From: Candidatus Delongbacteria bacterium
Lineage (GTDB): Bacteria; CAIWAD01
DNA: 64,000 bases
NCBI GenBank assembly: GCA_963663545.1
Contig: OY760505.1
Location: forward strand, 224,001-288,000
Direction of reading: 5' to 3'
Shown: positions 41,137 to 61,950 of the stretch, piece by piece
Layout: each line of letters begins with the position of its first letter
How positions within the stretch are numbered: position 1 is the first letter of the stretch
Position numbers and translations under genes: made by a program
Notes under the pieces: generated by a model
The model's input: only the letters and a program-made list of their open reading frames with translations
What the model was told of the DNA's origin: nothing
Databases searched by the model: none

Positions 41137-41164
41137 GGTTCACATCCTTGGTTCGGCAGGCAGC

Positions 41165-41214
41165 AAAGAAAACGGGCGGCGCGAACGCCGTCATGGCGCG
41201 AACGCCGCCCGTTT
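41165..41214 (-). terminator. Intrinsic terminator after gcvPB
   Basis: AAACGGGCGGCG / CGCCGCCCGTTT 12-bp inverted repeat with T-rich flanks. Confidence 0.7.
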
Positions 41215-41237
41215 GTATTTACAAATACAGGCCGTGC

Positions 41238-42692: not shown

Positions 42693-44029
42693 TTCGCACC
42701 CCCTTCCAGCACCTTGCGCACAAGGGCCAGATAGCCTTCGTAGTCCTGCTGGTTCTGGACTTCGTTGACCGTTACCAGCAGGCCGCCATCGATGCCTTCC
42801 ACCGGCAGACCGACCAGAATGCCCGTTTCGCGACCGGCCGCCAGTAGCGCCTCGCGATCGGGTACGCTTACAACGAATTCGCGGAAGAATTCGCGGCCAG
42901 CACGATGCACGCTCACACCGGGCAGCGCTTCAAGCTGCTCCGCCAGCCAACTGGCGCGGGTGTAGAGCGCCTGCGCTTTGTCGCGCAGCCCTTCGGGTCC
43001 AAGGAGCGCCATGTGGATGGTGGCAAAAGTGCCCACCAGCGCTTGGTTGGTGCAGATGTTAGAGGTGGCCTTTTCGCGGCGAATGTGCTGCTCGCGGGTC
43101 TGGAACGTCAGTACGTAGCCAGTGTTGCCCGCGGCGTCTTCGGTGGCACCGATCAGACGACCGGGCATGAAGCGCGTGAACTCAGCCTTGGCGGTAAAGA
43201 AGCCAATGTAAGGGCCGCCGTACTGCAGAGGCTGACAGAGGCTCTGCCCCTCGGCCACTGCGATATCAGCGCCCAGCTCACCCGGCGAAGCAAAGAGGCC
43301 GATGGAGAGCGGGTCGAAAACGTGAACCAGCGCAGCACCCACACCGTGCGTCAGCTCGGCCACCGCAGCCACGTCTTCCATCAGACCGTGGCAATTGGGG
43401 CTCTGCACGACAACGCACGCGGTCTGCTCATTCAGCTCGGCCTTGAGCGCGTCGATGGAGAGCGCTTCGCCCAGCGGCAGACGCACCAGCTCGATGCCCT
43501 GATCCAGCAGATACGTATTGATGACCTGATTGGTGTGCGACCAAAGTTCGCCCGCCAGCACAACGCGCGTGCGCTTGCGTACCAGCACCGCCATGCGGAT
43601 GGCCTCGACCACGGCGGTGGAGCCATCGTACATGGAAGCATTGGCCACATCCATGCCCGTCAGTCCGGTGAGCATGGTCTGGAATTCAAAAATGGTCTGC
43701 AGCGTACCCTGGCTGACTTCGGCCTGATAGGGCGTGTACGCGGTGTAGTACTCGCTGCGCATGGCAACCGCCTTCACCGCTTCGGGAACCATGGTCACAT
43801 AGGCACCGCCCCCCAGATAGCAATTCTGCGGCAGGGGACAGCAGTTGCGCGCGGCCAGTTCCTGTACGTGGCGTACCAGGTCGGGCTCCGCCAAAGGCGC
43901 AGGCAAGGGCAATTCACCCTGAACCCGCAACTCACCGGGAATGTAGCTGAACAGCTCATCAAGGCTGTTCACACCGATGGCGGCCAGCATTTCGCGCCGG
44001 TCCGCATCGGTATTGCTGATATAGGGCAT
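42689..44029 (-). CDS. gcvPA: Glycine decarboxylase subunit 1
   Basis: YTAYTPYQAEVSQG and REQHIRREKATSNICTNQ; ATG at 44029 with GGAGG RBS. Confidence 0.97.
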   Translation of the reverse strand: MPYISNTDADRREMLAAIGVNSLDELFSYIPGELRVQGELPLPAPLAEPDLVRHVQELAARNCCPLPQNCYLGGGAYVTMVPEAVKAVAMRSEYYTAYTPYQAEVSQGTLQTIFEFQTMLTGLTGMDVANASMYDGSTAVVEAIRMAVLVRKRTRVVLAGELWSHTNQVINTYLLDQGIELVRLPLGEALSIDALKAELNEQTACVVVQSPNCHGLMEDVAAVAELTHGVGAALVHVFDPLSIGLFASPGELGADIAVAEGQSLCQPLQYGGPYIGFFTAKAEFTRFMPGRLIGATEDAAGNTGYVLTFQTREQHIRREKATSNICTNQALVGTFATIHMALLGPEGLRDKAQALYTRASWLAEQLEALPGVSVHRAGREFFREFVVSVPDREALLAAGRETGILVGLPVEGIDGGLLVTVNEVQNQQDYEGYLALVRKVLEGGAK

Positions 44030-44082
44030 GACACCTCCATGGTCGGCATGGCCGACAACCCGCTCTTTGCAGGCGGGGGACA

Positions 44083-44119
44083 AACAAGGACGGCGGAGCC
44101 CGTCAAGGGTCCGCCGTTA
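44083..44119 (-). terminator. Hairpin / possible terminator after gcvH
   Basis: Minus strand ACGGCGGA...TCCGCCGT stem followed by CCTTGTTT. Confidence 0.5.
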
Positions 44120-44143
44120 CCAATTGAAAGCCGCCCGGGATCC

Positions 44144-44530
44144 TTAGATCTCGATGTGCTTCTCGTACTCGTCCGGACCCATCAGGTCTTCCAGCTCCTT
44201 GACATCGCGCAGCTTGATGCGATAGAGCCAGCCGCCGTGATAAGGATCGCCGTTGATGGCATCGGGAGTGTCGGCCAGCGCCTCGTTGACTTCGGTAATC
44301 TCGCCGCTGACGGGAGCGTAGATGTCGGCCATGGCCTTGACGGCCTCGATGGTGCCGATACTGTCGCCCTTCTCGAACTCTTCGCCTGCGCCGACGAGCT
44401 CGAGCATCACGATGTCGCCCAACTCACTCTGGGCAAAATCGGTGATACCAACAACGACCTCGTCGCCTTCAACCAGCACCCATTCGTGGTCGTCGGTGTA
44501 GAGCAGGTTGCCCGGTACGCTCATGATCAT
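44144..44530 (-). CDS. gcvH: Glycine cleavage system H protein
   Basis: YTDDHEWV, GITDFAQ and EAVKA lipoyl-Lys motifs. Confidence 0.96.
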   Translation of the reverse strand: MIMSVPGNLLYTDDHEWVLVEGDEVVVGITDFAQSELGDIVMLELVGAGEEFEKGDSIGTIEAVKAMADIYAPVSGEITEVNEALADTPDAINGDPYHGGWLYRIKLRDVKELEDLMGPDEYEKHIEI

Positions 44531-44566
44531 CTCCGAATAATATTGGCGGATGCGATTCCGCTTGTC

Positions 44567-45910
44567 CTATGGTTTGTATTCATGCTGCTCCAAAAAGCGA
44601 ATGTCGTATTCGCCGGAGCGGAAGGTTTCGTTCTGCATCAGCCATTTGTGGAAGGGAACCGTGCTACGCACGCCCTCGACCACGTACTCCTCCAGCGCAC
44701 GGGCCATGCGAATGATCGCGCGCTGGCGATCCGGCGCGTGAACAATGAGCTTGCCCATCAGGCTGTCGTAGTGCGGAGGAATGGTGTAGCCCTGGTACAC
44801 GTGGCTGTCGACGCGCACACCGGGGCCGCCAGGCAGATTCAGCGCCTGGATGGTGCCCGCAAAGGGCATGAAGTTCTTTGCCGGATCCTCGGCGTTGATC
44901 CGGCACTCAATGGCGTGACCGTTCAGCTGGATCTGCTGTTGACTCAGGGCCAGCGGCTCACCCACGGCGCACAGGATCATCTGACGAATCAGATCGACGC
45001 CGGTCACCATCTCGGTCACCGGATGTTCCACCTGAATGCGCGTGTTCATTTCCATGAAATAGAACTCGCCGTCCTGCAGCAGAAACTCAACCGTACCCGC
45101 GCTGGAATAACCCACGGCGTGACCGGCGGCGACTGCGGCCGCACCCATACGTTCGCGCAATTCAGGTGATACAGCCGGGCTGGGACACTCCTCCACCAGC
45201 TTCTGATGTCGGCGTTGAACGGTGCAGTCGCGCTCGCCCAGGTGTAACACGTTGCCGTGGCGATCGGCGATGATCTGCAGCTCGACGTGGCGCGGCCGCT
45301 CGAGATACTTCTCGAGATAGAGCCCCGCGTTGCCGAAGCCTGCCTGTGCTTCCGCGCTGGCGGTCTTGAAGGCGTGCTCGACATCCGCCGCGCTACGAGC
45401 GACACGCATGCCGCGTCCGCCTCCACCGGCGGTGGCTTTCAAAATGACAGGATAGCCCACGTCCTCGGCCAGACGGCTGGCTTCCTCGGCGGACTCCAGC
45501 AGGCCCTCGCTTCCGGGCACCACCGGTACACCGGCAGCACGCATGGTGCGCTTGGCTTCGGCCTTGTCGCCCATGCGACGGATGGCTTCGGGCGTCGGTC
45601 CCACAAAGGTAAGTCCGTGCTCTTCGCACATTTCGGCAAAGGCCGCGTTCTCGGCGAGAAAGCCGTAACCCGGATGAAGGGAGTCGCAATCGTGAGTATC
45701 GGCGGCAGCCAGCAAGCTGCGCACGTTCAGATAGCTCTGCGCAGAAGGCGGCGGTCCGATACAGACAGCCTCGTCTGCGAAGCGCACGTGCAGGCTGTCG
45801 GCGTCGGCGGTGGAATACACAGCCACGCTCTCAATGCCCAGCTCCCGGCAGGCGCGCACCACCCGCAGGGCGATCTCTCCGCGGTTGGCAATCAGCATGC
45901 GTCGGAACAA
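44567..45910 (-). CDS. accC: Acetyl-CoA carboxylase biotin carboxylase
   Basis: [25 protein letters not shown] and [10 protein letters not shown] motifs. Confidence 0.96.
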
Positions 45911-45919
45911 GACGACCTC

Positions 45920-46393
45920 CTAGTGCGGATCGATACGGAACAGAATCTGATCGAACTGGACCGGGCTGGAATTGTCCACCAAAATCTCAGCGATGGTGCC
46001 GGAGATCTCAGCCTCGATCTCGTTCATGATCTTCATGGCTTCGATGATGCAAAGCGTCTGGCCCGCCTTGATGCTGTCGCCCACTTCAACGAAGGGCTTG
46101 GCGTCGGGGCTGGGGCTGCGATAGAAATTGCCCACCATCGGTGATTTGACATCCTCCAGTGTGCTGTCGACCACGGCCGGAGCGGCGGCTGCGACAACAG
46201 GCTGGGCGGGCGCTGCGGGCCCCGCACTCAGGGAAGCCGGCGCGGCAAACACGCTCTCGACCACCTGCGGCACGGCGACTCCGCGACTCTCCTTGCGGAT
46301 GCGGATCTGCAGTTCGCCTTCTTCGATCTCGAGGGAAGAAATGTTGGCTCCCTCTACGAGGCGCACCAGTTTGCGAATCTCATTGAAATCCAT
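45920..46393 (-). CDS. accB: Biotin carboxyl carrier protein
   Basis: Ala/Pro linker, [15 protein letters not shown]. Confidence 0.96.
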
Positions 46394-46426
46394 CGGCTGT
46401 CCTTTTTCTGCTCGCTCGAGTTGAGC

Positions 46427-46987
46427 TTACTTGACGCGCTCGACGTACTCACGCTTGCGGGTGTCCACCTTGATTACCTCGCCCTCTCCAATGAAGAAGG
46501 GGACCATCACCGTGCAGCCTGTCTCCAGCTTGGCCGGCTTCTTGCCGCCCTGCGCGGTGTCGCCCTTGTCGTTGGGCTCGGTCTCGACAATCTGCAGCAC
46601 GACGTGAATCGGCAGCTCGATGCCAAGCGCTTCGGTGCCATGGAATAGCACGTCCACTTCGGTGGTTTCCTTCATCAGATCGATGACCTCGTCCACCAGG
46701 TAATCGGGCAGAATCAACTGCTCGTAGGTCTCATTGTCCATAAAGGTGTAGCCGGTTGCGTCCCTGTACAGGTACTGCATCTGGCGACTCTCCAGGCGGA
46801 CGATTTCGATCTTTTCGCCTGAGCGGAAGGTGGGGTCCAGGACCTTTCCGGTACGCACGTTCTTGATCTTGGTGCGCACGAAGGCACCGCCCTTGCCGGG
46901 CTTGACGTGCTGGAATTCGATGATGCGAAAAAGGTCGTTGTCGATTTTGATGGTCAGTCCGTTTCGGAAATCTGCAGTCGATGCCAT
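46427..46987 (-). CDS. efp: Elongation factor P
   Basis: HVKPGKGGAFVR and KPAKLETG motifs. Confidence 0.97.
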   Translation of the reverse strand: MASTADFRNGLTIKIDNDLFRIIEFQHVKPGKGGAFVRTKIKNVRTGKVLDPTFRSGEKIEIVRLESRQMQYLYRDATGYTFMDNETYEQLILPDYLVDEVIDLMKETTEVDVLFHGTEALGIELPIHVVLQIVETEPNDKGDTAQGGKKPAKLETGCTVMVPFFIGEGEVIKVDTRKREYVERVK

Positions 46988-47085
46988 AACGCGGGAGTTC
47001 TCCTGGTTCTTTTGCCAAGTCGCTTCCGGTGGGCCAAACAGGGGCAGTCAGCCGGGCGAATGCGGAATTTATTAATCGAGCCCTA

Positions 47086-49699
<2,614 letters not shown>

Positions 49700-49812
49700 G
49701 CTTCCTCCTTTGCGCTTTGAAGGAGAAGATAAATCATCCCACCCTTCTACATCGCGATCGGAATCGCCAGACAGCGCCGCTCAACAGGTTCTTACTCCCC
49801 CCCCCCACTCTT

Positions 49813-49860
49813 ATCGCTACCGGTATCGGTATCGGGATCGACTCCAAGGGTGTCGGACCG
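49813..49860. repeat. (ATCGGT)n hexamer tract plus short dispersed repeat
   Basis: 49825-49860 matches 61601-61636 at 28/36 positions by manual alignment. Confidence 0.65.
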
Positions 49861-50008
49861 TGATTCCAAGCTAGCGCAGCCTCAGACAGTGAAATCAGGA
49901 GTGGGATGTATCACAGCATGATCGTGATACACGACAAATGGGACGTGCAATGAAGAGCTGGAAAGTAGGTGCGGCGTGATTCCTGCACCCAGTCCAAATC
50001 TGTAATAC

Positions 50009-50037
50009 GAAAACGAGGCCCAAGCGGGCCTCGTTTC
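50009..50037 (-). terminator. Intrinsic (possibly bidirectional) terminator
   Basis: AAACGAGGCCC-AAGC-GGGCCTCGTTT perfect stem. Confidence 0.8.
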
Positions 50038-50069
50038 TTCTACACAGAAAAGGTGAATGAAAGTCAGGG

Positions 50070-50972
50070 CTAACGCACCAGCACCATCTTGCGGGTCTCC
50101 GTCAGCCGACCCGACTGCAGGCGGTAGAAATAGGTACCGCTGGGCAGGTTGGCCGCGTCGAAGGACACCGTGTGCTGCCCGCTCTCCATCAAACCGTTCG
50201 CCAGCGTGCTCACCAACGAACCATTCAGGTTGTAGACCTTCAGCTGAGTCATCTCGGTCTCGGGCAAGCTGAAGCTGATGGCGGTAGTGGGGTTGAAGGG
50301 GTTCGGATAGTTCTGGCTCAGGCCAAAGCTACCAGCGACCGGATCGGCGGAGGCTACTGGAGGTGCAGCAGGTAGGCCCTCGAGGGTGACGCTGTAGGCG
50401 ATCTCGTCGGGGAAATCGGTACCGTAGCCGAAGAGACCCAGCAGCAGCCAGTACTGACCGGCATTCAGGGTGATATCGTAGCTAACGATGCCGTCGATTG
50501 ACTCGTACTCAGAGCTCAAGTCGTAGCCCGGAACTGAACAGTCCAAAGTACCCACGCTGTTGCCATAAACGGTAGCGTAGAATGGGATCACGGTTTCCGT
50601 CTCGGCGTAGACGGTCAGCGTGGTGGTTTCGGTCAAAGTGATCTCGTACCAGTCCAGGTCGCGGAAGTTGTTGCCACTACTGGTAACGTAGGTGAACAAG
50701 GTGCCACAGATGTGGGCGTATGCCGGCTGTGCCATGTAAGGAATGGAGTTGCATGCGCCGTTTTGATCCGCGACTGGATCACTGTGCGGAGGCAGGTTTT
50801 CCAGGAAGGCGCCGTCGCAGCTCAGATCACGCGGTCCAGGAATGCAAGCCGCCGTCGGGGCGGGCGTGTAACCAGCCGGAGCCTGTACAGCGGAGGTTGA
50901 AGAAGCGAGGTTGGCGTTGGCGTTTAGTGAGAGGGCACAGGCCAGACAAGTGACGATGAGCATACGGTTCAT
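50070..50972 (-). CDS. Secreted protein with T9SS type A C-terminal sorting domain
   Basis: Signal peptide MNRMLIVTCLACALSLNANA; DLDWYEI (PPC-like) segment; QNYPNPFNPTT...LPSGTYFYRL...KMVLVR. Confidence 0.85.
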   Translation of the reverse strand: MNRMLIVTCLACALSLNANANLASSTSAVQAPAGYTPAPTAACIPGPRDLSCDGAFLENLPPHSDPVADQNGACNSIPYMAQPAYAHICGTLFTYVTSSGNNFRDLDWYEITLTETTTLTVYAETETVIPFYATVYGNSVGTLDCSVPGYDLSSEYESIDGIVSYDITLNAGQYWLLLGLFGYGTDFPDEIAYSVTLEGLPAAPPVASADPVAGSFGLSQNYPNPFNPTTAISFSLPETEMTQLKVYNLNGSLVSTLANGLMESGQHTVSFDAANLPSGTYFYRLQSGRLTETRKMVLVR

Positions 50973-51047
50973 TCTAAATCCTTCCTTCTCCCCCAGGGGC
51001 CGCCTGAGGTATGTTTGATGTTGCATTGCCAATTCGCCAGCCGCAGT

Positions 51048-51063
51048 GGCAAAGGGTGTGCCA
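51048..51063 (-). promoter_or_regulatory. Sigma54 -24/-12 promoter for the T9SS cargo gene
   Basis: Minus strand TGGCAC-ACCCT-TTGCC about 75 bp upstream of ATG 50972. Confidence 0.75.
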
Positions 51064-51174
51064 CGAATTTCAATCACCGGATATTACACTATTTAGGCCC
51101 ATTCTTTACTCGTGCCGAGTCGCAATTTTGCCCGATTTTGAACACTTCCAAGCATACTGACAGATTTCCTGTAT

Positions 51175-51198
51175 AAAACCCCGCCGTTGGGCGGGGGC
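51175..51198 (-). terminator. Intrinsic terminator
   Basis: Minus strand CCCCGCC-CAAC-GGCGGGG-TTTT. Confidence 0.7.
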
Positions 51199-51249
51199 TC
51201 TGGAAGCTTAATTGATTGGCTAGTGGACCGATTCGCGTTGAGGGCGAGC

Positions 51250-52014
51250 TTATTTAAGTAGCATCACCTTCTGGATTGCACTTTCATGCGGCGTGCTCAC
51301 TTTGATCAAGTATAAACCGCTGGCAAGATCTGCGGCTGAGAAAGCGTACTGGTTCTCGCCGGCAGTGCACTCCTCGTCCAGCAGCAGCCGTACACGCTGT
51401 CCGCACAGATTAAAGACCTCAAGACGCGTGCGGGCCGATGCGGGCTGCGCCCAGCGCACAAGGGTCGTTGGATTGAAAGGATTAGGATAGTTGTCGTGTA
51501 ACACCAGCGACCCGGGTATCACGGCCTGTTCCTTCACTCCCGAGGAAGTCAGGCCCAGCGCGGTCGATAAATAGTCGACGGCGCTCTCCGGCGTGTACTA
51601 GTGCAGCGAGAGAGCCGTGATACGACACTCGAAGGGCTCGTCGACCCACACTCCGGCAACGCGGCCATTGTTGTCGTCGCTGGTCTGCCAGACGCAGGCC
51701 TCGTAGCCCTCTTGCAGATAGTCCTCAGCCATGGGAGCTAAAGCGATGACCAGTGAATCGGGATTCTGGGCAGCCACCAGCTCTTCGTCTATCACCAGAT
51801 TCGTTCCAGAGGGTGAGTGTGTCCCACCCGCGCGGATGCCTCTCAGAAGCTCCGTGAGGAGACCATACTCGGTGGGAGTCTCGTACACGAGCATTACCGG
51901 CTCCCCGGCTCCCAACTCCAAGTAGTCCATCCCAGGAATGCTGCCGGGCAAACACCCCTGTCCCGTCACCAGCACGCGTCCGCCAATGCGTGTGATGGGA
52001 TTGAGCTGCAGCAC
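51250..52014 (-). pseudogene. 5'-truncated T9SS-CTD protein gene with in-frame TAG
   Basis: ORFs 51598-52014 and 51250-51537 share a frame across one TAG (51598-51600); NYPNPFNP CTD; no signal peptide; 5' end abuts the repeat array. Confidence 0.75.
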
Positions 52015-52960
52015 AGCTGGTCAGCAAGCGATTTCACTCAGCTTTCTGCAACCATCTCTTGCAGGCAACTGCAATAGCCTGTACATCGCGGCCTCTTCGC
52101 GAGCATGGCTCAATTGGTAGAGTGCCAGCTTCCCAGTTCCTCTGCTGCACGCGGACGCGTAGCGTCTGAGGTGCAGCATAGCTGGTCAGCAAGCGATTTC
52201 ACTCAGCTTTCTGCAACCATCTCTTGCAGGCAACTGCAATAGCCTGTACATCGCGGCCTCTTCGCGAGCATGGCTCAATTGGTAGAGTGCCAGCTTCCCA
52301 GTTCCTCTGCTGCACGCGGACGCGTAGCGTCTGAGGTGCAGCACAGCTGGTCAGCAAGCGATTTCACTCAGCTTTCTGCAACCATCTCTTGCAGGCAACT
52401 GCAATAGCCTGTACATCGCGGCCTCTTCGCGAGCATGGCTCAATTGGTAGAGTGCCAGCTTCCCAGTTCCTCTGCTGCACGCGGACGCGTAGCGTCTGAG
52501 GTGCAGCACAGCTGGTCAGCAAGCGATTTCACTCAGCTTTCTGCAACCATCTCTTGCAGGCAACTGCAATAGCCTGTACATTGTGACCCACTTGCGAGCG
52601 TAACTCAGTTGGTAGAGTGCCAGCTTCCCAGTTCCTCTGCTGCACGCGGACGCGTAGCGTCTGAGGTGCAGCACAGCTGGTCAGCAAGCGATTTCACCCG
52701 GCTTTCTGCAACTATCTCTTGCAGGCAACTGCAATAGCCTGTACATCGCGGCCTCTTCGCGAGCATGGCTCAATTGGTAGAGTGCCAGCTTCCCAGTTCC
52801 TCTGCTGCACGCGGACGCGTAGCGTCTGAGGTGCAGCACAGCTGGTCAGCAAGCGATTTCACTCAGCTTTCTGCAACCATCTCTTGCAGGCAACTGCAAT
52901 AGCCTGTACATTGTGACCCACTTGCGAGCGTAACTCAGTTGGTAGAGTGCCAGCTTCCCA
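52007..52960 (+). repeat. 165-bp tandem array of promoter-like sequence + tRNA-Gly 5' half + 44-nt hairpin (5 interrupted copies plus the intact terminal gene)
   Basis: TCAGCAAGCG recurs at 52021, 52186, 52351, 52516, 52681 and 52846; tRNA 5' ends at 52099, 52264, 52429, 52594, 52759 and 52924. Confidence 0.95.
52884..52912 (+). promoter_or_regulatory. Sigma70-like promoter of tRNA-Gly (repeated in each array unit)
   Basis: TTGCAG-17 nt-TACATT ending 11 nt before the tRNA. Confidence 0.6.
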
Positions 52961-52996
52961 AGCTGGTCGTCGCGGGTTCGAGCCCCGTCGCTCGCT
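52924..52996 (+). tRNA. tRNA-Gly (anticodon CCC), CCA not encoded
   Basis: Cloverleaf: GCGAGCG/CGCTCGC acceptor, ACTC/GAGT D stem, CCAGC-TTCCCAA-GCTGG anticodon arm, GGTTCGAGCC T loop, U73. Confidence 0.95.
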
Positions 52997-53004
52997 GTTT
53001 GTCA

Positions 53005-53183
53005 GCTTCGCTGACAACTCGCCGAAGACACCCGAGGGCGTCTTCGCCACAAAAGCAGCTGCCGTTCTCCGCTACGCGGAGAACAAACTCATCAGGGAAC
53101 ATGCTTCGCTGACAACTCGCCGAAGACACCCGAGGGCGTCTTCGCCACAAAAGCAGCTGCCGTTCTCCGCTACGCGGAGAACA
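53005..53183. repeat. Two 81-bp direct repeats made of short hairpins
   Basis: 53005-53085 equals 53103-53183; contains CGAAGACACCCGAGGGCGTCTTCG and GTTCTCCGCTACGCGGAGAAC. Confidence 0.9.
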
Positions 53184-53217
53184 GATCCATCGAAGTATGT
53201 GAACCGTGTCTGGGTTT

Positions 53218-53275
53218 GTGCCAGCTTCCCTGTTCCTCTGCTGCACGCGGACGCGCAGCGTCTGAGGTGCAGCAC
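53218..53275 (+). repeat. Orphan copy of anticodon-arm fragment plus the 44-nt hairpin
   Basis: GTGCCAGCTTCCC-T-GTTCCTCTGCTGCACGCGGACGCGCAGCGTCTGAGGTGCAGCAC. Confidence 0.9.
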
Positions 53276-53281
53276 GGCTCT

Positions 53282-53315
53282 CCGATACCGATACCGATAC
53301 CGATACCGATATCGA
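53282..53315. repeat. (CCGATA)5 hexamer microsatellite
   Basis: Direct reading. Confidence 0.9.
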
Positions 53316-53321
53316 TGGGAG

Positions 53322-54320
53322 CTACTCCGCGCTGTGTTTTCTCAGGCTGCCGGCGACATCGCCTTTCCATTCTGCGCTCGTCTCAAGCGGACAGATCTCG
53401 GGAGGAGTTTCGTACCAGCGCTGCATGCCTTTGCGCCAATGACACCAGCTGGTTTCCGGGCCAAAATCGTGGGTGCTGAGCACGCAGGTTTCGCCCTGCG
53501 GGCTGAGGGCGTGTATCACGACTGATCCCAGAAAGCCCTCGCGCAGCCGGGCCATATCGGCCATCGCTTCGTGACAGGCCTCCTCCACACTCAGGCCGAA
53601 ACGCATGGCGGCCACCACTGCGCGCGCCGTGCCCGCTCGAATCGTCATCTCGCCGGTGTGGGTGCAGGCACAGGCTCCGTAGCGCTGATCGACGTAGAGG
53701 CCCGCGCCAATGACCGGCGAATCCCCCAGACGGCCAGGATACTTGTGCGCCCAACCGCTGGTGCTGGTGCCTCCTGCCAGCTGGCCTTGCTTGTTAATGC
53801 AGAGCAGAACCGTGGTGCCCTTGGCCATGTGCAGGCTCTCGCGCGGCCAGCAATAGGGCGCTAGCGGCTCACGACCAGAAAGCGCATTGCTCAGTCGTGC
53901 GCTCTGACGCTGTCGATGCCAGACTTCGCTTTCGTCGCTAAGCATCTCCGCTTCGGCAGCACCCACTTCACGGGCAAATCGTGCAGCACCTTCACCCACC
54001 AGCATCACGTGAGGCAATTTCTCCATGACACGGCGTGCTACACTGACCGCATGCAGGTAGCCGGAAAGCGCTCCCACACTGCCGCAGCAGCGTGTTACGC
54101 CATCCATGATGGCCGCATCGCACTCCACCACTCCTGCCAGATTGGGGTAACCGCCATAACCGACGGTACGCACAGCAGGATCGGCCTCCACGGGATGAAT
54201 GCCCGCCTCAACAACGTCCAAGGCGCTCTTGCCAGCCTCCAGGGCCAGTACAGCGGCATCCATGCCCACGCGTCCTTCGCCATTCATCAGTACCAGCACA
54301 ACAAGCTCCCTTGCCTGCAA
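53322..54320 (-). CDS. Ntn-hydrolase: isoaspartyl peptidase / glycosylasparaginase family
   Basis: VGYGGYP, CDAAIMDG, KG|TT autocleavage site, TSTSGWAHKYPGRLGDSPVIGAG; start uncertain. Confidence 0.9.
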   Translation of the reverse strand: MQARELVVLVLMNGEGRVGMDAAVLALEAGKSALDVVEAGIHPVEADPAVRTVGYGGYPNLAGVVECDAAIMDGVTRCCGSVGALSGYLHAVSVARRVMEKLPHVMLVGEGAARFAREVGAAEAEMLSDESEVWHRQRQSARLSNALSGREPLAPYCWPRESLHMAKGTTVLLCINKQGQLAGGTSTSGWAHKYPGRLGDSPVIGAGLYVDQRYGACACTHTGEMTIRAGTARAVVAAMRFGLSVEEACHEAMADMARLREGFLGSVVIHALSPQGETCVLSTHDFGPETSWCHWRKGMQRWYETPPEICPLETSAEWKGDVAGSLRKHSAE

Positions 54321-54334
54321 GCGTCACTTATGTA

Positions 54335-55303
54335 TCACACCCGCCCACGAATCAGCAGAAAGAGAAAGAAAGGGCCACCCAACAGCGCCGTTAGAATACC
54401 CACCGGCATTTCCGCAGGAGCCAGCAGACTACGGGCCAGTGTATCACAGGCCACCAGAAACAGGCCACCGGCAGGAAACACCCAAGCACCAAGGCGCGCG
54501 TGCGTCGGCCCCAGCAGAAGACGCAGAATATGCGGCACCATCATGCCCACAAAGGCGATGGGACCGCAGACGGCCACCACCGCGCCCACAATCAGCGCAC
54601 TGGTTCCCAGCACAACGCGTCTCACACGGCGCAGATTCACGCCACGACTGGCGGCCAGCTCCTCGCCCGTGCACAACAAATCCAGCTCTCGGTGATGCAG
54701 TAGTAGCACAACGGATCCGCCAAGCACCAGCAAGGCCGTGAAGATCAGCTGCACCGTACCCGGAGCCGTGATACTCCCCATCAGCCAGCGCAGCAGACGA
54801 AAGGTCTGGGTGTAATCCGCCAGATATTGGGCCAGCATGACCAGGCTGCCGCAAATGAAATTGAGCGCCACACCCGCTAGAAGCAGACTGTGCTGCGTCA
54901 GTCCACCGGCAGCGCGTCCCACCAGCAGCACCAGGCCCATGGTGGCAAGCGCTCCCCCCATTGCGCCCGCAACACTCAAGCCTCCTGCCAGGCCGACTCC
55001 CAGGCCGAAAAGCGTCACCATCGCTGCGCCCAGCGACGCACCGGAAGCCAGTCCCAGTGTGTAGGGTGTGGCGAGCGGGTTGCGAAACAGCGCCTGGTAG
55101 ACCATGCCCGCGACCGCCAGGCCGCCTCCAGCCAGAAAGGCCAACAACACGCGCGGCAAACGCAGGTGCAAGAGGATCATCTGCTCATAGCCCGTGCTCT
55201 GCCAGAATGCGGGGGAAATCCAGGGCACACCGGCACTCACCGCCAGCAGCAGAAGAAAGGGCAACAGCACGTAGAGCAGAACCAGAGGCAGTCGCTGACT
55301 CAC
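54335..55303 (-). CDS. FecCD/BtuC-family ABC permease
   Basis: LRLPRVLL, FRNPLATPYTLG, GPIAFVGMMVPH and PVGILTALLGGPFF motifs. Confidence 0.93.
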   Translation of the reverse strand: MSQRLPLVLLYVLLPFLLLLAVSAGVPWISPAFWQSTGYEQMILLHLRLPRVLLAFLAGGGLAVAGMVYQALFRNPLATPYTLGLASGASLGAAMVTLFGLGVGLAGGLSVAGAMGGALATMGLVLLVGRAAGGLTQHSLLLAGVALNFICGSLVMLAQYLADYTQTFRLLRWLMGSITAPGTVQLIFTALLVLGGSVVLLLHHRELDLLCTGEELAASRGVNLRRVRRVVLGTSALIVGAVVAVCGPIAFVGMMVPHILRLLLGPTHARLGAWVFPAGGLFLVACDTLARSLLAPAEMPVGILTALLGGPFFLFLLIRGRV

Positions 55304-56052
55304 GCCGGACCTCCTTCTCTGAAGCCCTCCGGCAGACGCCCGTAGAGCTCTTGCAGCATCTGTGGCTGCAGCAGCCCCTGCACTTGGCCGAAGTATACCC
55401 TCTCACCCTGCTTCAGTGCGATGGCTGTATCACAAAGCGCGCTCATCGCACGCAAATCGTGACTCACCAGCAGATAAGAGCAGGCACGCTCGGCATGGAT
55501 GCGTCGCAAGACCTCGGCAAACTCGACACACTGACCAGGGTCGAGAAACGCGGTCGGCTCGTCCAGGAGCAGCCACTCGGCTTCCTGCGCCAGTGCTGCG
55601 GCCAGCATCACGCGCTGCTTCTCGCCACCGGATAATGTGGACATCCGACGCTTGCGCCACTCCACACATGACGTCAGTTCAAGGGCGTGACACACCGCCG
55701 GGTGATCGGTGGCCGGCGAGCTGAAACGCGGCTCGCGAGCGTAGCGTGCCAGGGCAACGAAATCTTCTACAAGGAAGTCGCTGCCCTGACGATCAGCTTG
55801 AGGAACCCAGGCCATGAGCCCTGCGCGTTCACGAGCCGTGATCCGTGGCAACGCACGCCCCGCGAACTGAATCCCGCCGTGATACGGAAGCAGTCCCAGC
55901 AGGCAACGCAGCAGCGTGCTTTTTCCTGCTCCGTTGGGCCCTGCCAGCAGACAGCGCGAACCCGCAGGCAACTTCAGGCTGAGATCCTTCAGCAGGAAAC
56001 GCCCACCGCGCTGCACACTTAGATGCTCGAATTGCAGCTCGCTCAAGGACAC
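55300..56052 (-). CDS. ABC ATPase (BtuD/FecE type)
   Basis: GPNGAGKS, LSGGEKQR, LLLDEPT and SHD motifs. Confidence 0.93.
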   Translation of the reverse strand: MSLSELQFEHLSVQRGGRFLLKDLSLKLPAGSRCLLAGPNGAGKSTLLRCLLGLLPYHGGIQFAGRALPRITARERAGLMAWVPQADRQGSDFLVEDFVALARYAREPRFSSPATDHPAVCHALELTSCVEWRKRRMSTLSGGEKQRVMLAAALAQEAEWLLLDEPTAFLDPGQCVEFAEVLRRIHAERACSYLLVSHDLRAMSALCDTAIALKQGERVYFGQVQGLLQPQMLQELYGRLPEGFREGGPA

Positions 56053-56984
56053 AGCGTCTCCCGCTTCAATTCAGGATGCAGACAAAGTGCCAGTTCACAC
56101 AGAGCTTGCCCCAGCCGCGGGCCCGGAATCGTCAAGACAGGATCGCTGAGCACAAAGACGTGCCCCTGTGTCACGGCAACAATGCCCTGCAACAGCAGCC
56201 AATCCTCGCGCAGGCTCTCCTCTGAGCGTGCACCGTTCTCTGGAACCAGCTCGAATATCACCTCCGGTTGCAGGTGATACAAACTCTCGCGATCAACCTG
56301 TGGCACGGCAGGAAGACTGCCAGCATAAACGTTCTCGCCACCCGCCAGTGTAAGTAGCTCGCTCAAATAACTACCGCCACCGGTCATGTAGAGGTCGCGG
56401 GGTAGTCCGGGAGCCGGGTCTCGACCAACGCAAAGTGCCGTGCGTATCACAGGGAAAGGTGCACAGAGCTGCTGTACGTGATCCAGCTGTGTCTGCAACG
56501 CCTGTTTCAGTGAGTCGGCGCGGGTTTCCCCGCCCAAGTAGAGTTGCAGGCTATCGAGGGAGGACAACAAACCGGCCAGTGTGTCGTGTTGCAGCAGCAG
56601 ACAGCGAATGCCCATCGCCCGCAGACTCTGGGCGGCATCGGCGCCCTCGCGCAGCAGTAACACCAGATCGGGTTGCAGTCGTACAACGGATTCGATGCTC
56701 AGATCCAGGTAGCCGCCCACACGTGGCAGCTCCTGTGTTTCCGTGGGCCAATTGCAGTAGCGTGTCACGCCCACCACACGATCCCCTGCTCCGCAGGCGA
56801 AAAGGCACTCGGTGATACTTGGTGCCAGGCTGACCAGCCTCTGCGGGGATGTCGATACTGGAACAGAACCTAGCGCGTTCACCGGCTGTGGCAGCAGGCA
56901 AAGCAGCGCGAAAAGCAGGCTGAAAAGGGTGATACGCACGCGGCTACCTCGAGAATGACTCCTGCAAGGTAACAATCGCGGCAA
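56043..56984 (-). CDS. BtuF-like helical-backbone substrate-binding protein (cobalamin / iron chelate)
   Basis: RLVSLAPSITE, VGVTRYCNWP, RVGGY and IPGPRL motifs; true start may be slightly downstream. Confidence 0.88.
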   Translation of the reverse strand: MPRLLPCRSHSRGSRVRITLFSLLFALLCLLPQPVNALGSVPVSTSPQRLVSLAPSITECLFACGAGDRVVGVTRYCNWPTETQELPRVGGYLDLSIESVVRLQPDLVLLLREGADAAQSLRAMGIRCLLLQHDTLAGLLSSLDSLQLYLGGETRADSLKQALQTQLDHVQQLCAPFPVIRTALCVGRDPAPGLPRDLYMTGGGSYLSELLTLAGGENVYAGSLPAVPQVDRESLYHLQPEVIFELVPENGARSEESLREDWLLLQGIVAVTQGHVFVLSDPVLTIPGPRLGQALCELALCLHPELKRETLCP

Positions 56985-56988
56985 GGCT

Positions 56989-57771
56989 TCAGAGGAAGCG
57001 CGTGAGTAGGGTGTCGATCTGGCCAGCCCAATAGGGAATCTGGTCGCCGACGAAGATAGCGAAGGGCGCCATCAGCAGGCCGAGCATCACAATGCCCACG
57101 CCGATTTTCAGTGGAAAGCCGACGATAAAGATGTTCATCTGCGGCACGACGCGCGCCACCACCCCCAGCCCGACTTCGGCCAGCAACAGAGCCGCCAGCA
57201 CCGGTGCCCCCATGCGCAGCCCAAGAATGAGCACCTCGCCCGAGATGCGAATGGCGTCGTCGCGCAGAAGCCCGCTCAGCTCCACACCGCCTATGGGCAG
57301 ACGCTGAAAGCTCTCGAAGAGCGCACTCAGGATCATGTGATGCCCGTCCAGAACCAGGAAGATTAGTAGTAGCCCCCAGCGCAAGAGTTGGCTGATCAGA
57401 CTCTCCTGCGAGCCCGACTCGGGATCCAGCACCGCAACTACGCCGAAGCCCATCTGCACCCCGACGAGCTGTCCCGCAAACTGGGCCGCCCAGAAGAGGG
57501 CCTGTATCACAGCGCCCAGGAACACTCCCAGAAAGACTTCGTGAAAGGCCATGCCCAGCCAGGAATAAATAGAATGCGGCCCCGGCGGCAGGTGATCCAC
57601 CGGCAGTAGCGGTATCACAATCAGGGTCAGAATGATACCGAAGGAGATCTTCCATCTTGTATTGGTGGCGCGCGAGCCAAAGAAAGGTGCCGCAATCAGC
57701 AGCCCCAGAATGCGCATCAGGACCAGCAAAAAAAGCTCGACCAGCGCCAGGGGAAACTCGAAGAAGGGCAT
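56989..57771 (-). CDS. fliR: Flagellar export protein FliR
   Basis: AGQLVGVQMGF, DGHH and RVVPQMNIFIVGFPLK motifs. Confidence 0.95.
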   Translation of the reverse strand: MPFFEFPLALVELFLLVLMRILGLLIAAPFFGSRATNTRWKISFGIILTLIVIPLLPVDHLPPGPHSIYSWLGMAFHEVFLGVFLGAVIQALFWAAQFAGQLVGVQMGFGVVAVLDPESGSQESLISQLLRWGLLLIFLVLDGHHMILSALFESFQRLPIGGVELSGLLRDDAIRISGEVLILGLRMGAPVLAALLLAEVGLGVVARVVPQMNIFIVGFPLKIGVGIVMLGLLMAPFAIFVGDQIPYWAGQIDTLLTRFL

Positions 57772-58037
57772 CAGCTAAGTCCCGTGATCAGCGAAAATAG
57801 GTTGGTGGTGTACGCCAGCAGGGATTGCATCATCCAGGGCATCAGAAACAGAAGCGTAAGTGCAACGGCGACGATCTTGGGGATGAAGGTCAGCGTCATC
57901 TCGTGTACCTGTGTCACGCTCTGCAGGATGCCGATGACCAGACCCACCACCAGACCGACAATCAGAATCGGTCCGGCAATCAGGAAGGAAATCCACAAGG
58001 TTTCCTTGATCAGGTGTACGACGAGTTCCTGTGACAC
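57771..58037 (-). CDS. fliQ: Flagellar export protein FliQ
   Basis: QSVTQVHEMTLTFIPK. Confidence 0.95.
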   Translation of the reverse strand: MSQELVVHLIKETLWISFLIAGPILIVGLVVGLVIGILQSVTQVHEMTLTFIPKIVAVALTLLFLMPWMMQSLLAYTTNLFSLITGLS

Positions 58038-58052
58038 AAGACAGGTCCTTCT

Positions 58053-58808
58053 TTAGAATCGGAAGCCTTCCACAACCGAACGTATCAGCAGATTCCAGCC
58101 GTCCACCAGCACAAAGAGCAGCACTTTGAAGGGCAGACTGATCATCACCGGCGGCAGCATCATCATACCCATGCTCATCAGCACACTGGCGACCACCATG
58201 TCGATGACCAGGAAGGGCAGGTAGATCATGAAGCCGATTTGAAAACCAATGCGTAGTTCGCTGATGACGAAGCCCGGTATCACAACGGTAATGGGCAGCT
58301 CTTCAGGCGTGCTGGGACGGTCGATGTGCGCCAGTCGCACGAAGAGCGCCAGGTCCTCCTGCCGCGTCTGCCGCAGCATAAAATCCTTGAAAGGCTGCTG
58401 GCCAATGACAAAGGCCTCTTTTTGCGTGATGTCCCCGTTCAGATAGGGCTGCAGCGCCTCCTGATTCATCTGATCGAAGGCTGGTCGCATCACAAAGAAA
58501 GTCAGAAAGAGCGCGAGGCCCACCAGCAGCTGGTTGGGCGGCAATTGCTGCGTTCCCAGCGCCTGGCGAATGAAATGCAAGACAACGATGATGCGCGTGA
58601 AGCTGGTGGTCATGATGAGCAAGGCGGGCGCCAAGGCCAGCAGCGTCATCAGCAGCAGGATTTCCAGCGCGACGACAAAATCCGGCGAAGCGCCTTGTCC
58701 TCCCGCACCAAAACTGATGCTCAGACCGCCCGGAGCGGCCGCAGGCGCTTGGGCAATAGCGGGCAGCGCCAGCAGAAAGAGCGGCAGGAGTTTCAGCAGG
58801 CCTTTCAT
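58053..58808 (-). CDS. fliP: Flagellar export protein FliP
   Basis: TSFTRII, PPNQ and GMMMLPPVMISLPFKVLLFVLVDGW motifs. Confidence 0.97.
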   Translation of the reverse strand: MKGLLKLLPLFLLALPAIAQAPAAAPGGLSISFGAGGQGASPDFVVALEILLLMTLLALAPALLIMTTSFTRIIVVLHFIRQALGTQQLPPNQLLVGLALFLTFFVMRPAFDQMNQEALQPYLNGDITQKEAFVIGQQPFKDFMLRQTRQEDLALFVRLAHIDRPSTPEELPITVVIPGFVISELRIGFQIGFMIYLPFLVIDMVVASVLMSMGMMMLPPVMISLPFKVLLFVLVDGWNLLIRSVVEGFRF

Positions 58809-59248
58809 TTTGCGCCGCCCCCGGCCGATTCAGCCTGGCTCAGAAAACCGCTGAAGGGGCCGCCTCCGCGGCAGTCGCGTATCACGGCTTCCGCCTCCTC
58901 GCCCTTCCAGGTTTGCAGCGAGCGAATGCCGCCGTCGCTGATTCCCAGCAGAAGCACACGATCGGCGGCGCGTACCAGCAGCAGTTGCCGACGCGGTCCA
59001 AGCCCCAGTGCCTGCAGGCTTTCCAGCGGTCGTCGCGGTGATCCCGGTTTGACGCGCGTGTGCAGATAATCGCGCCCCAGGCGTAGCACCCAGTAGAAGA
59101 CGAAGAAGAGCAGAAAGACCAGCGCGGCCTTGATTCCCAGCATCCACAGGCTTTCGCTGGCGCCTGACAGATGCCGGAAGGCGCCCAGACTGTCGGCGAA
59201 TTGTGTCACGGGGGAAGCTTGTCCCAAGCTGTCGGCGGCGGGTATCAT
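58805..59248 (-). CDS. fliO: Flagellar protein FliO
   Basis: Single TM then LGPRRQLLLV...LLLGIS; between fliN and fliP. Confidence 0.8.
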   Translation of the reverse strand: MIPAADSLGQASPVTQFADSLGAFRHLSGASESLWMLGIKAALVFLLFFVFYWVLRLGRDYLHTRVKPGSPRRPLESLQALGLGPRRQLLLVRAADRVLLLGISDGGIRSLQTWKGEEAEAVIRDCRGGGPFSGFLSQAESAGGGAK

Positions 59249-60244
59249 TTACTGCGTAGCCTGTCGCATGCGCTCTTCCATCTTGACCAGATCCGTGATA
59301 CGCACGCCGAAATTCTCGTCGATGACCACGACCTCGCCCAGCGCGAACTTCTTGCCGTTGACAAAGAGATCCACCGGCTCGCCCACCAACTTGTTCAGCT
59401 CGACGATGGAGCCCGGGTTCAGCTCGACGATATCTTTGATCAGCATGCGCGTGCGGCCCAGCTCGATGGTCACCGGCAGATCCAGATCCAGCACCTTGCC
59501 CAGACTGTGGGTCATGGTCCCATCAAAGGCATTGCTCGCAGGCTGAGGCGCAGAGCCGAAATCGGTGAACTCGGCGCGCTTGACCTCCCGCTGGGGCTCC
59601 TCGTCGGGAATAGTGTCGGGCATGGGGATCTCGATCTCGCGCGGTGCGTCCTCCTGCGGTTCAGACGCACTTGCTCCGTCAGCTCCATGCAGCAGCACCT
59701 TGCCCAAGGATTCAAAGGCTTCGGGGCTGTAGGCCTTGAGCAGTGTGGCAGGCGCCTGGCCTTCGATGATGACTTCAAAGCGCACCAGCACCCAGTCGGC
59801 GTATTCGGCAGCCAATTCGGCCATGGTCATCAGCCGCGCGGCCTGCACCTCGTTACGCAGACTCAGCCCCAGGCGCAGCGACATGTCGGTCATCTCCGCG
59901 CCCATGAGCTGATTGATGGCTTCGACGATGCCGTCCAGATGCTCGTCGGGCATGAACTCCACTTCGCCGTCGCCCATGATCATGAAGTCGACGACCTTGG
60001 CGGTGAGGATCTTGCTGAGCAGGAAAAGAATGCTGCCCGAAAGCCCCTTCACAAAGGTGGATTCCACCTGGACCAGCTCGTCCTCGCCCAGACCGTTCAG
60101 GTAATCCGCGTCCACCTTGACCAGCTCGAGCAGATTGACCTTGGTCTCCAGGTTGATCACCGTGCGGAAGATCTCACCCGCGCGCTCGGCGAAGCCCGTC
60201 TCCAGCGTCTGATAGGCTTCCAGATTGGGAATGCTCTCTGCCAT
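59249..60244 (-). CDS. fliN: C-ring protein FliN with N-terminal CheC-like region (FliY-like)
   Basis: C-terminal IELGRT...GEVVVIDENFGVRIT; N-terminal EAINQ (ExxN) CheC-like motif. Confidence 0.85.
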   Translation of the reverse strand: MAESIPNLEAYQTLETGFAERAGEIFRTVINLETKVNLLELVKVDADYLNGLGEDELVQVESTFVKGLSGSILFLLSKILTAKVVDFMIMGDGEVEFMPDEHLDGIVEAINQLMGAEMTDMSLRLGLSLRNEVQAARLMTMAELAAEYADWVLVRFEVIIEGQAPATLLKAYSPEAFESLGKVLLHGADGASASEPQEDAPREIEIPMPDTIPDEEPQREVKRAEFTDFGSAPQPASNAFDGTMTHSLGKVLDLDLPVTIELGRTRMLIKDIVELNPGSIVELNKLVGEPVDLFVNGKKFALGEVVVIDENFGVRITDLVKMEERMRQATQ

Positions 60245-61597: not shown

Positions 61598-61950
61598 TTA
61601 ATCGGTATCGGTGCCGACTCCTTTGGAGTCGGATCGAGTCTTCTCTTCTCCCTTCGTCCTTCTGTCACTACCAGCACCAACGAATGCTTCGCCAGCCTCT
61701 CTGATCGGACGGTGATACAACCGATTGTCGGAGAGAGTGGAAGGGAAGAAGACAAAGACTAAGACTAAGAACGATACCGATACCGATACCGATAGCGATA
61801 CCGATAAAGTGTATGAGGGATCGTAACATGGGCTTCACGAATGCCTATGGACGAAGCCATGCCGCTTCGTAGAGTGACGTGTTGAGCCAGGTCCTGAAGC
61901 ATGGCTTCGTCGAGGTGTCGCGCACGAAGTGCTCGACACACCGATAGCGA
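61598..61950. repeat. Intergenic repeat cluster: opposed (ATCGGT)n/(ACCGAT)n tracts, AAGACT repeats and hairpins
   Basis: ATCGGTATCGGT at 61601; (CGATAC)n at 61772-61806; 13-bp inverted repeat 61850-61862/61899-61911; hairpin 61915-61939. Confidence 0.75.

Follow-up and report, generated by a model that had tools for sequence, protein, structure and literature searches.

Background

Introns at position 37/38 are described in archaeal and eukaryal tRNA genes, as are split or permuted tRNA genes (PMC4090602, PMC3978253), and group I introns interrupt the anticodon loops of bacterial tRNA genes (bioRxiv 10.1101/2020.01.27.920355). We report on a 64,000-nucleotide (nt) stretch of DNA from a Candidatus Delongbacteria bacterium (contig OY760505.1 of assembly GCA_963663545.1, positions 224,001 to 288,000; hereafter the window), in which a 44-nt hairpin, which we call H, is found between nt 37 and 38 of partial copies of a tRNA-Gly(CCC) gene. 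H looks like a small piece of palindromic DNA that is carried passively in dead copies of this gene and is not spliced. On balance, we favour with modest confidence an origin in which a small palindrome was inserted, on one or two occasions, into the loop of an anticodon-arm copy that had no function, and was then multiplied by unequal crossing-over.

Mobile and repetitive DNA provides the other points of comparison. Elements of the IS200/IS605 type insert after a fixed sequence without target duplication, recognize hairpins and have two different end hairpins. Repetitive extragenic palindromes (REPs) are 20-40 bp long, dispersed and present in high copy number, often in alternating orientation (PMC2817692, PMC3733652). 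They carry the tetranucleotide GTAG or CGTC, unpaired, at one end, and some REP families are located inside small target palindromes (PMC3733652). The Rickettsia palindromic elements (RPEs) are 100-150 bp long, abundant and dispersed, and are tolerated inside working genes (PMC1779305, PMC3733652). Finally, genomic islands with an integrase leave displaced fragments of tRNA genes, which is the signature used by Islander (PMC4383910, PMC9897764).

Results

A clean hairpin at position 37/38

The first full copy of H, at 52136-52179, is preceded by ...GCCAGCTTCCCA and followed by AGCTGG, and its junctions are clean at both sides. The uninterrupted gene at 52924-52996 reads TTCCCAAGCTGG at 52955-52966, where the interrupted copies read TTCCCA, H and AGCTGG; nothing has therefore been duplicated or lost at the junction. 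A preliminary description of this DNA had claimed as much, and had also placed a 44-nt hairpin ending in T at 52136-52179; the sequence and a comparison of the copies agree with both statements. The final T is peculiar to the first copy and is its one mismatch to the consensus, all other copies ending in C.

In the fold of H, an outer stem of 8 bp is followed by an inner stem of 7 bp (the latter with one G-U pair), closed by a 3-nt loop, so that a single nested hairpin occupies 37 of its 44 nt. The unpaired ends are GTTCCTC on the 5' side and C on the 3' side; the tetranucleotides GTAG and CGTC occur only within the loop and inner stem. Folded as RNA, the tRNA strand of H reaches -25.3 kcal/mol (z = -4.27), a value equalled by 1 of 200 shuffled sequences, and the opposite strand folds less well, at -20.0 kcal/mol, because of the G-U pair in the inner stem. 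The flanking CCAGCT and AGCTGG can pair around H, as RNA and as DNA. Folding thus reproduced both the hairpin and an anticodon stem that closes around it, as proposed in the preliminary description.

In the window, we found six copies of H at up to 3 mismatches, against an expectation of 0.00 from 100 shuffles, and all six lie within the locus 52002-53279. Five of them belong to a tandem array, and in four of those five units the sequence of H is identical; the sixth, which we call the solo copy, lies downstream of the tRNA gene. No 12-mer of H, or of a 98-bp repeat near the solo copy, occurs elsewhere in the window, and H was therefore not templated from nearby DNA.

A 165-bp array of truncated gene fronts

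With Tandem Repeats Finder, we detected a repeat with a period of 165 bp at 52002-52960 (5.8 copies, 95% matches). Each unit consists of H, AGCTGGTC (tRNA nt 38-45), a 64-nt stretch, a 12-nt leader and tRNA nt 1-37, and the 64-nt stretch is the same DNA as is found upstream of the real tRNA gene. If we write K for the 121-nt block made up of tRNA nt 38-45, the 64 nt of upstream DNA, the leader and tRNA nt 1-37, and h' for the piece of H at the left end, the locus reads h'-K-H-K-H-K-H-K-H-K-H-K-(tRNA nt 38-76); nt 38-76 follow the last K and no other, and the complete tRNA closes the array. Outside one patch of variation, taken up below as variants A and B, a unit-by-unit comparison shows differences of 0-3 nt. 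Because five of the six copies of H lie within one tandem repeat, H is seen in at most two independent contexts.

What surrounds H in the array is only part of a tRNA gene. Each copy has 14 nt of tRNA sequence before it (nt 24-37) and 8 nt after it (nt 38-45), and past nt 45 the sequence runs into gene-upstream DNA and not into the variable loop, T arm and acceptor strand. None of the H-bearing copies contains nt 46-76. The earlier statement that H is inserted in a tRNA is thus right as to the position, 37/38, but is not confirmed as to the host, since only the 8 nt AGCTGGTC match the tRNA after H.

These observations bear directly on the suggestion, made in the preliminary description, that H is a mini-intron removed from RNA by a nuclease and a ligase. 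Such an intron would be expected at position 37/38, in an anticodon stem able to close around it, as is the case here. However, the 3' exon would be at most 8 nt long in the array and 4 nt in the solo copy, and the working gene is uninterrupted. No bulge-helix-bulge had been found at the junctions, and none formed in our own check by hand: by the geometry of the motif, TTCC of the loop would have to pair with the tetranucleotide that precedes the final two bases of the intron, and this tetranucleotide reads CAGC. H is only 44 nt long and has no ribozyme match. We scanned all 133 open reading frames (ORFs) of at least 110 aa in the window, and some shorter ones, with Pfam at thresholds from 0.01 to 1e-5; the RtcB, EndA and GIY-YIG families are absent, as are integrase, transposase, reverse transcriptase and cas families, and no nuclease or ligase candidate for H was found. 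With the 3' exon, the bulge-helix-bulge and the ribozyme match all lacking and the working gene free of the insert, we find removal of H from RNA hardly credible at this locus.

A second suggestion was that H is a REP-like palindrome with a specificity for the anticodon loop. In its strongest form, a mobile H recognizes the tRNA-Gly(CCC) anticodon arm and was inserted separately into each copy, which would account for its presence at the same position in all six non-functional anticodon-arm copies and in two flank contexts, array and solo. Against this stand the exact 165-bp period and the near-identity of the units, which indicate that the five array copies of H multiplied with the unit and were not inserted singly. 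One insertion followed by duplication needs far fewer events, and the window contains no enzyme candidate; separate homing into each copy seems to us improbable. Insertion as such fits the junctions in both contexts, and a REP-like targeted element may still lie behind it; the repetition of H, however, results from duplication of the 165-bp unit and not from repeated targeting.

An exact period and near-identical units might also be produced by repeat mis-assembly, which could have inflated the array or created it. The units are not uniform, however: they include two 5'-half variants in irregular order, 3 private substitutions in one unit and a C>T change in the first H, and neither the solo copy nor the junctions to unique DNA depend on the array. 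An assembly artefact is therefore very unlikely. Two other kinds of repeat were considered and dropped: a CRISPR array, since the 121-nt 'spacers' are copies of one another and no cas family is present in the window, and integron attC or Xer/dif-type sites, for which there are no matching enzyme genes.

It is also conceivable that the array has a function. The upstream DNA and 5' halves might drive or tune expression of the tRNA, or give rise to small RNAs composed of a 5' half and H, with H serving as a processing, pausing or stabilizing hairpin on the tRNA strand. In favour of such a role, the real gene's upstream DNA is repeated in every unit, H folds better on the tRNA strand, and the tRNA and asparaginase genes converge on the solo copy, a setting in which hairpins at 3' ends are common. 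Yet a terminator scan called no terminator-like site at any copy of H, and H is followed by a T-run on neither strand; no promoter match was found within the array in a scan limited to the sigma-70 type; the array has no Rfam family match; and no relative that might show conservation was found in our searches of reference genomes, plasmids and phages. We consider a function of this kind to be doubtful, and about as improbable as separate homing.

The working gene and two variants of its 5' half

ARAGORN finds one tRNA in the whole window, and the same single uninterrupted tRNA is all that it returns for 51801-53500 under lowered thresholds with introns of up to 300 nt permitted. An Rfam search of 45000-60000 at E<=1 identified that tRNA alone, with no match to a ribozyme, a group I intron or any other RNA family. 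There are seven exact copies of GTGCCAGCTTCCC in the window, namely the six H-bearing copies and the real gene. In other words, every non-functional copy of the anticodon arm (6/6) carries H, and the functional copy does not. The anticodon arm alone, folded as a DNA hairpin, reaches -6.6 kcal/mol, which none of 200 shuffles equalled.

Along the array, K occurs as two variants, which follow one another as A,A,A,B,A,B; B is the version of the real gene (Table 1). They differ at 11 positions, 10 of them transitions, all inside 27 nt: seven in the leader and the others at tRNA nt 7, 9, 10 and 15. The remaining 138 nt of the unit are identical, including the 72 nt in front of the two variants. In the cloverleaf, nt 7 pairs with nt 66; variant B has G7, variant A has A7, and the resident 3' half has C66. 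Similarly, nt 15, which we take to pair with nt 48 in the tertiary fold, is G in variant B and A in variant A, against a resident C48. Variant B thus fits the resident 3' half at both places and variant A at neither. Given this misfit, variant A resembles the front of another working allele, and it looks like just that, and not like the product of random decay. The order of the variants and the 3 private substitutions of one A unit suggest a past duplication of two units together, an A-B pair of 330 bp.

Table 1. Features of the tRNA-Gly(CCC) locus and its immediate surroundings, in window coordinates
Feature	Positions	Strand	Basis
Truncated pseudogene of a protein secreted by the type IX secretion system (T9SS), abutting the left array edge; N-terminus and signal peptide gone	51250-52014	-	Por_Secre_tail domain in 51250-51537
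Left array end h' (last 13 nt of H, 1 mismatch)	52002-52014	+	unit comparison
K block copy 0, variant A; tRNA nt 38-45 at 52015-52022, tRNA nt 1-37 at 52099-52135	52015-52135	+	
H copy 1, ends in T	52136-52179	+	
K block copy 1, variant A 5' half	52180-52300	+	unit comparison
H copy 2	52301-52344	+	
K block copy 2, variant A	52345-52465	+	unit comparison
H copy 3	52466-52509	+	
K block copy 3, variant B; agrees with real gene in leader and 5' half	52510-52630	+	
H copy 4	52631-52674	+	
K block copy 4, variant A, 3 substitutions in upstream part	52675-52795	+	
H copy 5	52796-52839	+	
tRNA nt 38-45, 64-nt upstream DNA and leader B, directly before real gene	52840-52923	+	
Sole complete tRNA-Gly(CCC), without H, 5' half variant B	52924-52996	+	ARAGORN; Rfam tRNA, 65.2 bits; cloverleaf fold
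98-bp tandem repeat, 1.8 copies, 100% matches, hairpin-rich, between tRNA and solo copy	53005-53183	+	
Solo copy: tRNA nt 24-36 (53218-53230), T, H copy 6 (53232-53275, loop T>C), GGCT	53218-53279	+	

Two alleles of the leader and 5' half, one of which (A) misfits the resident C66 and, by the 15-48 pairing, C48, while the other (B) fits, would also be left behind if an element with a tyrosine integrase had crossed over in the anticodon loop and brought its own leader and 5' half. The locus would then be an integration scar, with H as the element arm beside the crossover and the upstream 5' fragments as displaced pieces; the interior of the element would later have been deleted and the remnant amplified, or tiny remnants would lie in tandem. 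The break at the anticodon loop, the location of the 5' fragments upstream of the gene and the layout of the solo copy (non-tRNA DNA, anticodon arm, H, the order expected at an element-to-element junction) agree with such a history, and a deletion at the left edge of the array could have taken the element away. Anticodon-centred sites are the commonest in the island collection of the Islander study (2083 of 3919 islands), in which 159 of the 3919 are 5'-fragment islands, with the fragment upstream of the gene (PMC4383910).

Several observations run counter to a scar. No integrase was detected among the 133 ORFs or the shorter ones scanned, and merely 116 nt separate each tRNA fragment from the next 5' half. 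If one of the variants A and B were host DNA and the other came from an element, the 72 nt before them should not be identical, as they are. H sets the arms of the anticodon stem 51 nt apart, so that the function of a core site should be lost. Moreover, tRNA nt 38-45 resume after H, which is unexpected for an element arm; an attachment-site junction would not resume, and true insertion is therefore favoured. Taken together, these points make an integration scar unlikely in our judgement.

The solo copy

The sixth copy of H is located 272 nt downstream of the anticodon loop, with the tRNA and asparaginase genes converging on it. Without H, it would be an 18-nt fragment of the anticodon arm. Its flanks follow the pattern nt 24-36, N / H / N, nt 39-41; the tRNA part after H is 4 nt long and includes nothing past nt 41, so that the tRNA sequence resumes only in part. 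Over 62 nt, the solo copy shows 3 differences from the array, two of which are the bases touching H (A37>T and A38>G). Either it is a second insertion, into another anticodon-arm fragment, or it is a copied piece whose junctions have changed.

We asked whether the flanks of the solo copy could be read as degenerate tRNA or array sequence, and rejected the idea: 989, 333, 328 and 56 of 1000 shuffles scored as well. The last of these values, obtained against the 3' part of the tRNA, is borderline, and the stretch concerned lies within the coding end of the asparaginase gene.

The DNA to the right of the tRNA contains other hairpins. A perfect 8-bp hairpin with a 3-nt loop (52999-53017) directly follows the tRNA 3' end and overlaps the first unit of the 98-bp repeat, and each unit of that repeat contains a perfect 9-bp hairpin. 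The centre of the latter reads CGCGTAGCG on the minus strand, the same 9-mer as the centre of H; there are 3 independent occurrences of CGCGTAGCG in the window against 0.84 expected, which may be chance. Hexamer microsatellites of the GATACC/GGTATC type are found at 49809-49842, 53282-53316 and 61760-61817, all of them intergenic, and the second lies directly after the solo copy.

The left edge and the genes of the window

The array abuts a truncated pseudogene on its left (Table 1). The T9SS sorting domain and a 138-aa ORF (51598-52014) lie in the same frame, split by a stop at 51598-51600; the frame closes 3 codons further upstream, inside the array, and a signal peptide is absent. A search for homologues of the 138-aa part examined 710 candidates and found none at E<=0.001. 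The missing start of the gene is not present on the right side of the locus. A deletion is therefore needed even if the whole segment was inserted, and a model in which 52015-53275 entered as one piece between hairpin-like ends fails for the same reason. The simplest account of the left edge is a deletion with one end inside a copy of H. We also tried to read the DNA to the left of h' as degenerate H, and rejected this because 617 of 2000 shuffles scored as well.

Elsewhere, the genes of the window are housekeeping genes: an NAD-dependent DNA ligase (LigA), elongation factor P, accB/accC and glycine cleavage genes, asparaginase, an iron-type ABC transporter, MreB, and flagellar and motor genes. 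T9SS genes are represented by PorV and T9SS cargo proteins. Judged by these genes, the source would be a bacterium from the broader Fibrobacterota-Chlorobiota-Bacteroidota assemblage. Two long ORFs without a Pfam match at 41148-45169 on the plus strand are antisense shadows of the minus-strand genes gcvPB, gcvPA, gcvH and accC.

Searches beyond the window

We scanned 185,579 reference genomes for a 21-base core motif of H. The scan gave 11 loci, all with near-identical flanks, and the window itself was not among them. Neither the 3' arm of H nor a tRNA is present at any of the 11. In the one locus checked with Pfam (L002), the motif match falls in scpA. The 11 loci appear to represent a single chance partial match in what appears to be one orthologous gene, scpA. 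Only accC-gcvH, at about 50% protein identity, is shared between them and the window.

All 11 loci (L001-L011) are from metagenome-assembled genomes of Latescibacterota or Gemmatimonadota, and the run in scpA matches 27 of about 30 bases of the 5' arm and loop of H. In L002 the region around the match is 1937-2698 on the minus strand, and an HNH endonuclease gene lies between scpA and gcvH.

Three reading frames are open through H. Protein searches with them gave no candidate in two word-indexed searches; a full HMMER search gave 3 matches at E<=0.001, to long low-complexity repeat proteins, which were dismissed by eye.

Discussion

A possible history of the locus

The insertion of a palindrome followed by duplication of the unit, which we favour, can be laid out in four steps. 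A partial duplicate containing at least nt 1-45 would first have arisen upstream of the gene. The palindrome would then have entered the loop of the anticodon arm between nt 37 and 38 without target duplication, most likely by a single-strand route of the REP/HUH type that uses hairpin loops as targets; we favour such a route because there is no target duplication, because the target is itself a DNA palindrome and because some REP families are reported inside small target palindromes. The unit of K and H would next have been multiplied by unequal crossing-over or slippage. An exchange to the left of the loop keeps the last copy on the 3' half that is free of H, and the working gene thus stays clean. 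In the last step, a deletion with one end inside a hairpin would have trimmed the array on its left and taken with it the start of the adjoining gene.

A number of observations weigh against this history. In the window, no second member of an H family is found outside 52002-53279, and there is no transposase of any kind. H has no GTAG or CGTC end tag, and it is one hairpin, not the two different end hairpins of elements of the IS200/IS605 type. The 185,579 reference genomes, among which the genome of the source organism was not returned, yielded no true copy of H, and a search of plasmid and phage collections with a 234-nt piece of the array (blastn, distant mode) gave no match. That two of the three differences in the solo copy fall on the bases touching H (P about 0.0016) is unexpected for a simple copy. 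The clustering of the differences between variants A and B has an upper-bound chance probability of about 4e-8, and the four steps do not explain this mosaic. Nor do they account for the origin of the first partial duplicate, consisting of nt 1-45 and upstream DNA.

A bolder version of insertion gives H a specificity of its own. H would be a minimal mobile palindrome that homes to the single-stranded DNA loop of the tRNA-Gly(CCC) anticodon arm at 37/38 and has struck at least twice, in the founder of the array and in the solo fragment; it would survive only in dead copies, insertions into the working gene having been selected against or precisely removed. We put this forward tentatively, as a possibility that is rather unlikely.

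Significance

Should H indeed target position 37/38 of the anticodon loop, bacteria would have a counterpart, at the level of DNA, of the canonical tRNA intron site, and H would bear on how tRNA genes first became interrupted there. The array is in any case a natural example of a repeat in which the functional gene at one end stays clean while every dead copy carries an insert. It also calls for caution: what appears to be an intron-bearing bacterial tRNA is here a tandem array of truncated gene fronts, and such fragments can be taken for interrupted genes by gene finders and by readers. For the present, the interest of the locus lies mainly in this warning and in its oddity.

Comparison with known systems

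The ingredients of the locus are known singly: fragments of tRNA genes are displaced, sequences are duplicated in tandem, and palindromic repeats insert into palindromes or into genes. In the limited literature collection that we searched, we found neither a short palindrome described at 37/38 in the DNA of bacterial tRNAs nor 5' fragments of tRNA genes described as tandem arrays. The same holds for their combination as found here, namely an array of 5' fragments with the same palindrome at 37/38, a clean gene and an occupied fragment that stands alone.

Archaeal and eukaryal tRNA introns share the position in the anticodon loop, and several 5' halves beside one 3' half superficially recall split genes. 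Here, however, the host genes are bacterial, there is neither a bulge-helix-bulge nor a 3' exon, and no insert breaks the working gene. Group I introns are built around a catalytic core, which Rfam does not find in H, and their length is several times the 44 nt of H.

The islands described for Islander are similar in that incomplete tRNA copies accompany an intact gene in the same orientation, with the break at the anticodon loop and the 5' fragments upstream. They differ in that an island of at least 2 kb with an integrase is required between fragment and gene, neither of which is present here. In this locus the fragments instead follow one another at 165-bp intervals, tRNA sequence continues for 8 nt beyond H, and the gene's own upstream DNA is repeated.

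Like elements of the IS200/IS605 type, H lies after a fixed sequence without target duplication. Those elements are longer and have two end hairpins, whereas H is a single 44-nt hairpin in a window without TnpA.

H resembles the REP/REPIN class in being a short, GC-rich, imperfect palindrome whose stem includes a G-T pair, located within the palindrome of the anticodon arm; it differs in its length of 44 nt, the position of all its copies in the window at one locus, the uniform orientation of these copies, the lack of an end tag and the absence of a RAYT gene from the window. With the RPEs, H has in common that palindromic repeats can land inside genes and not only between them. RPEs are tolerated within genes that work, whereas at this locus the working gene is the one copy without the insert.

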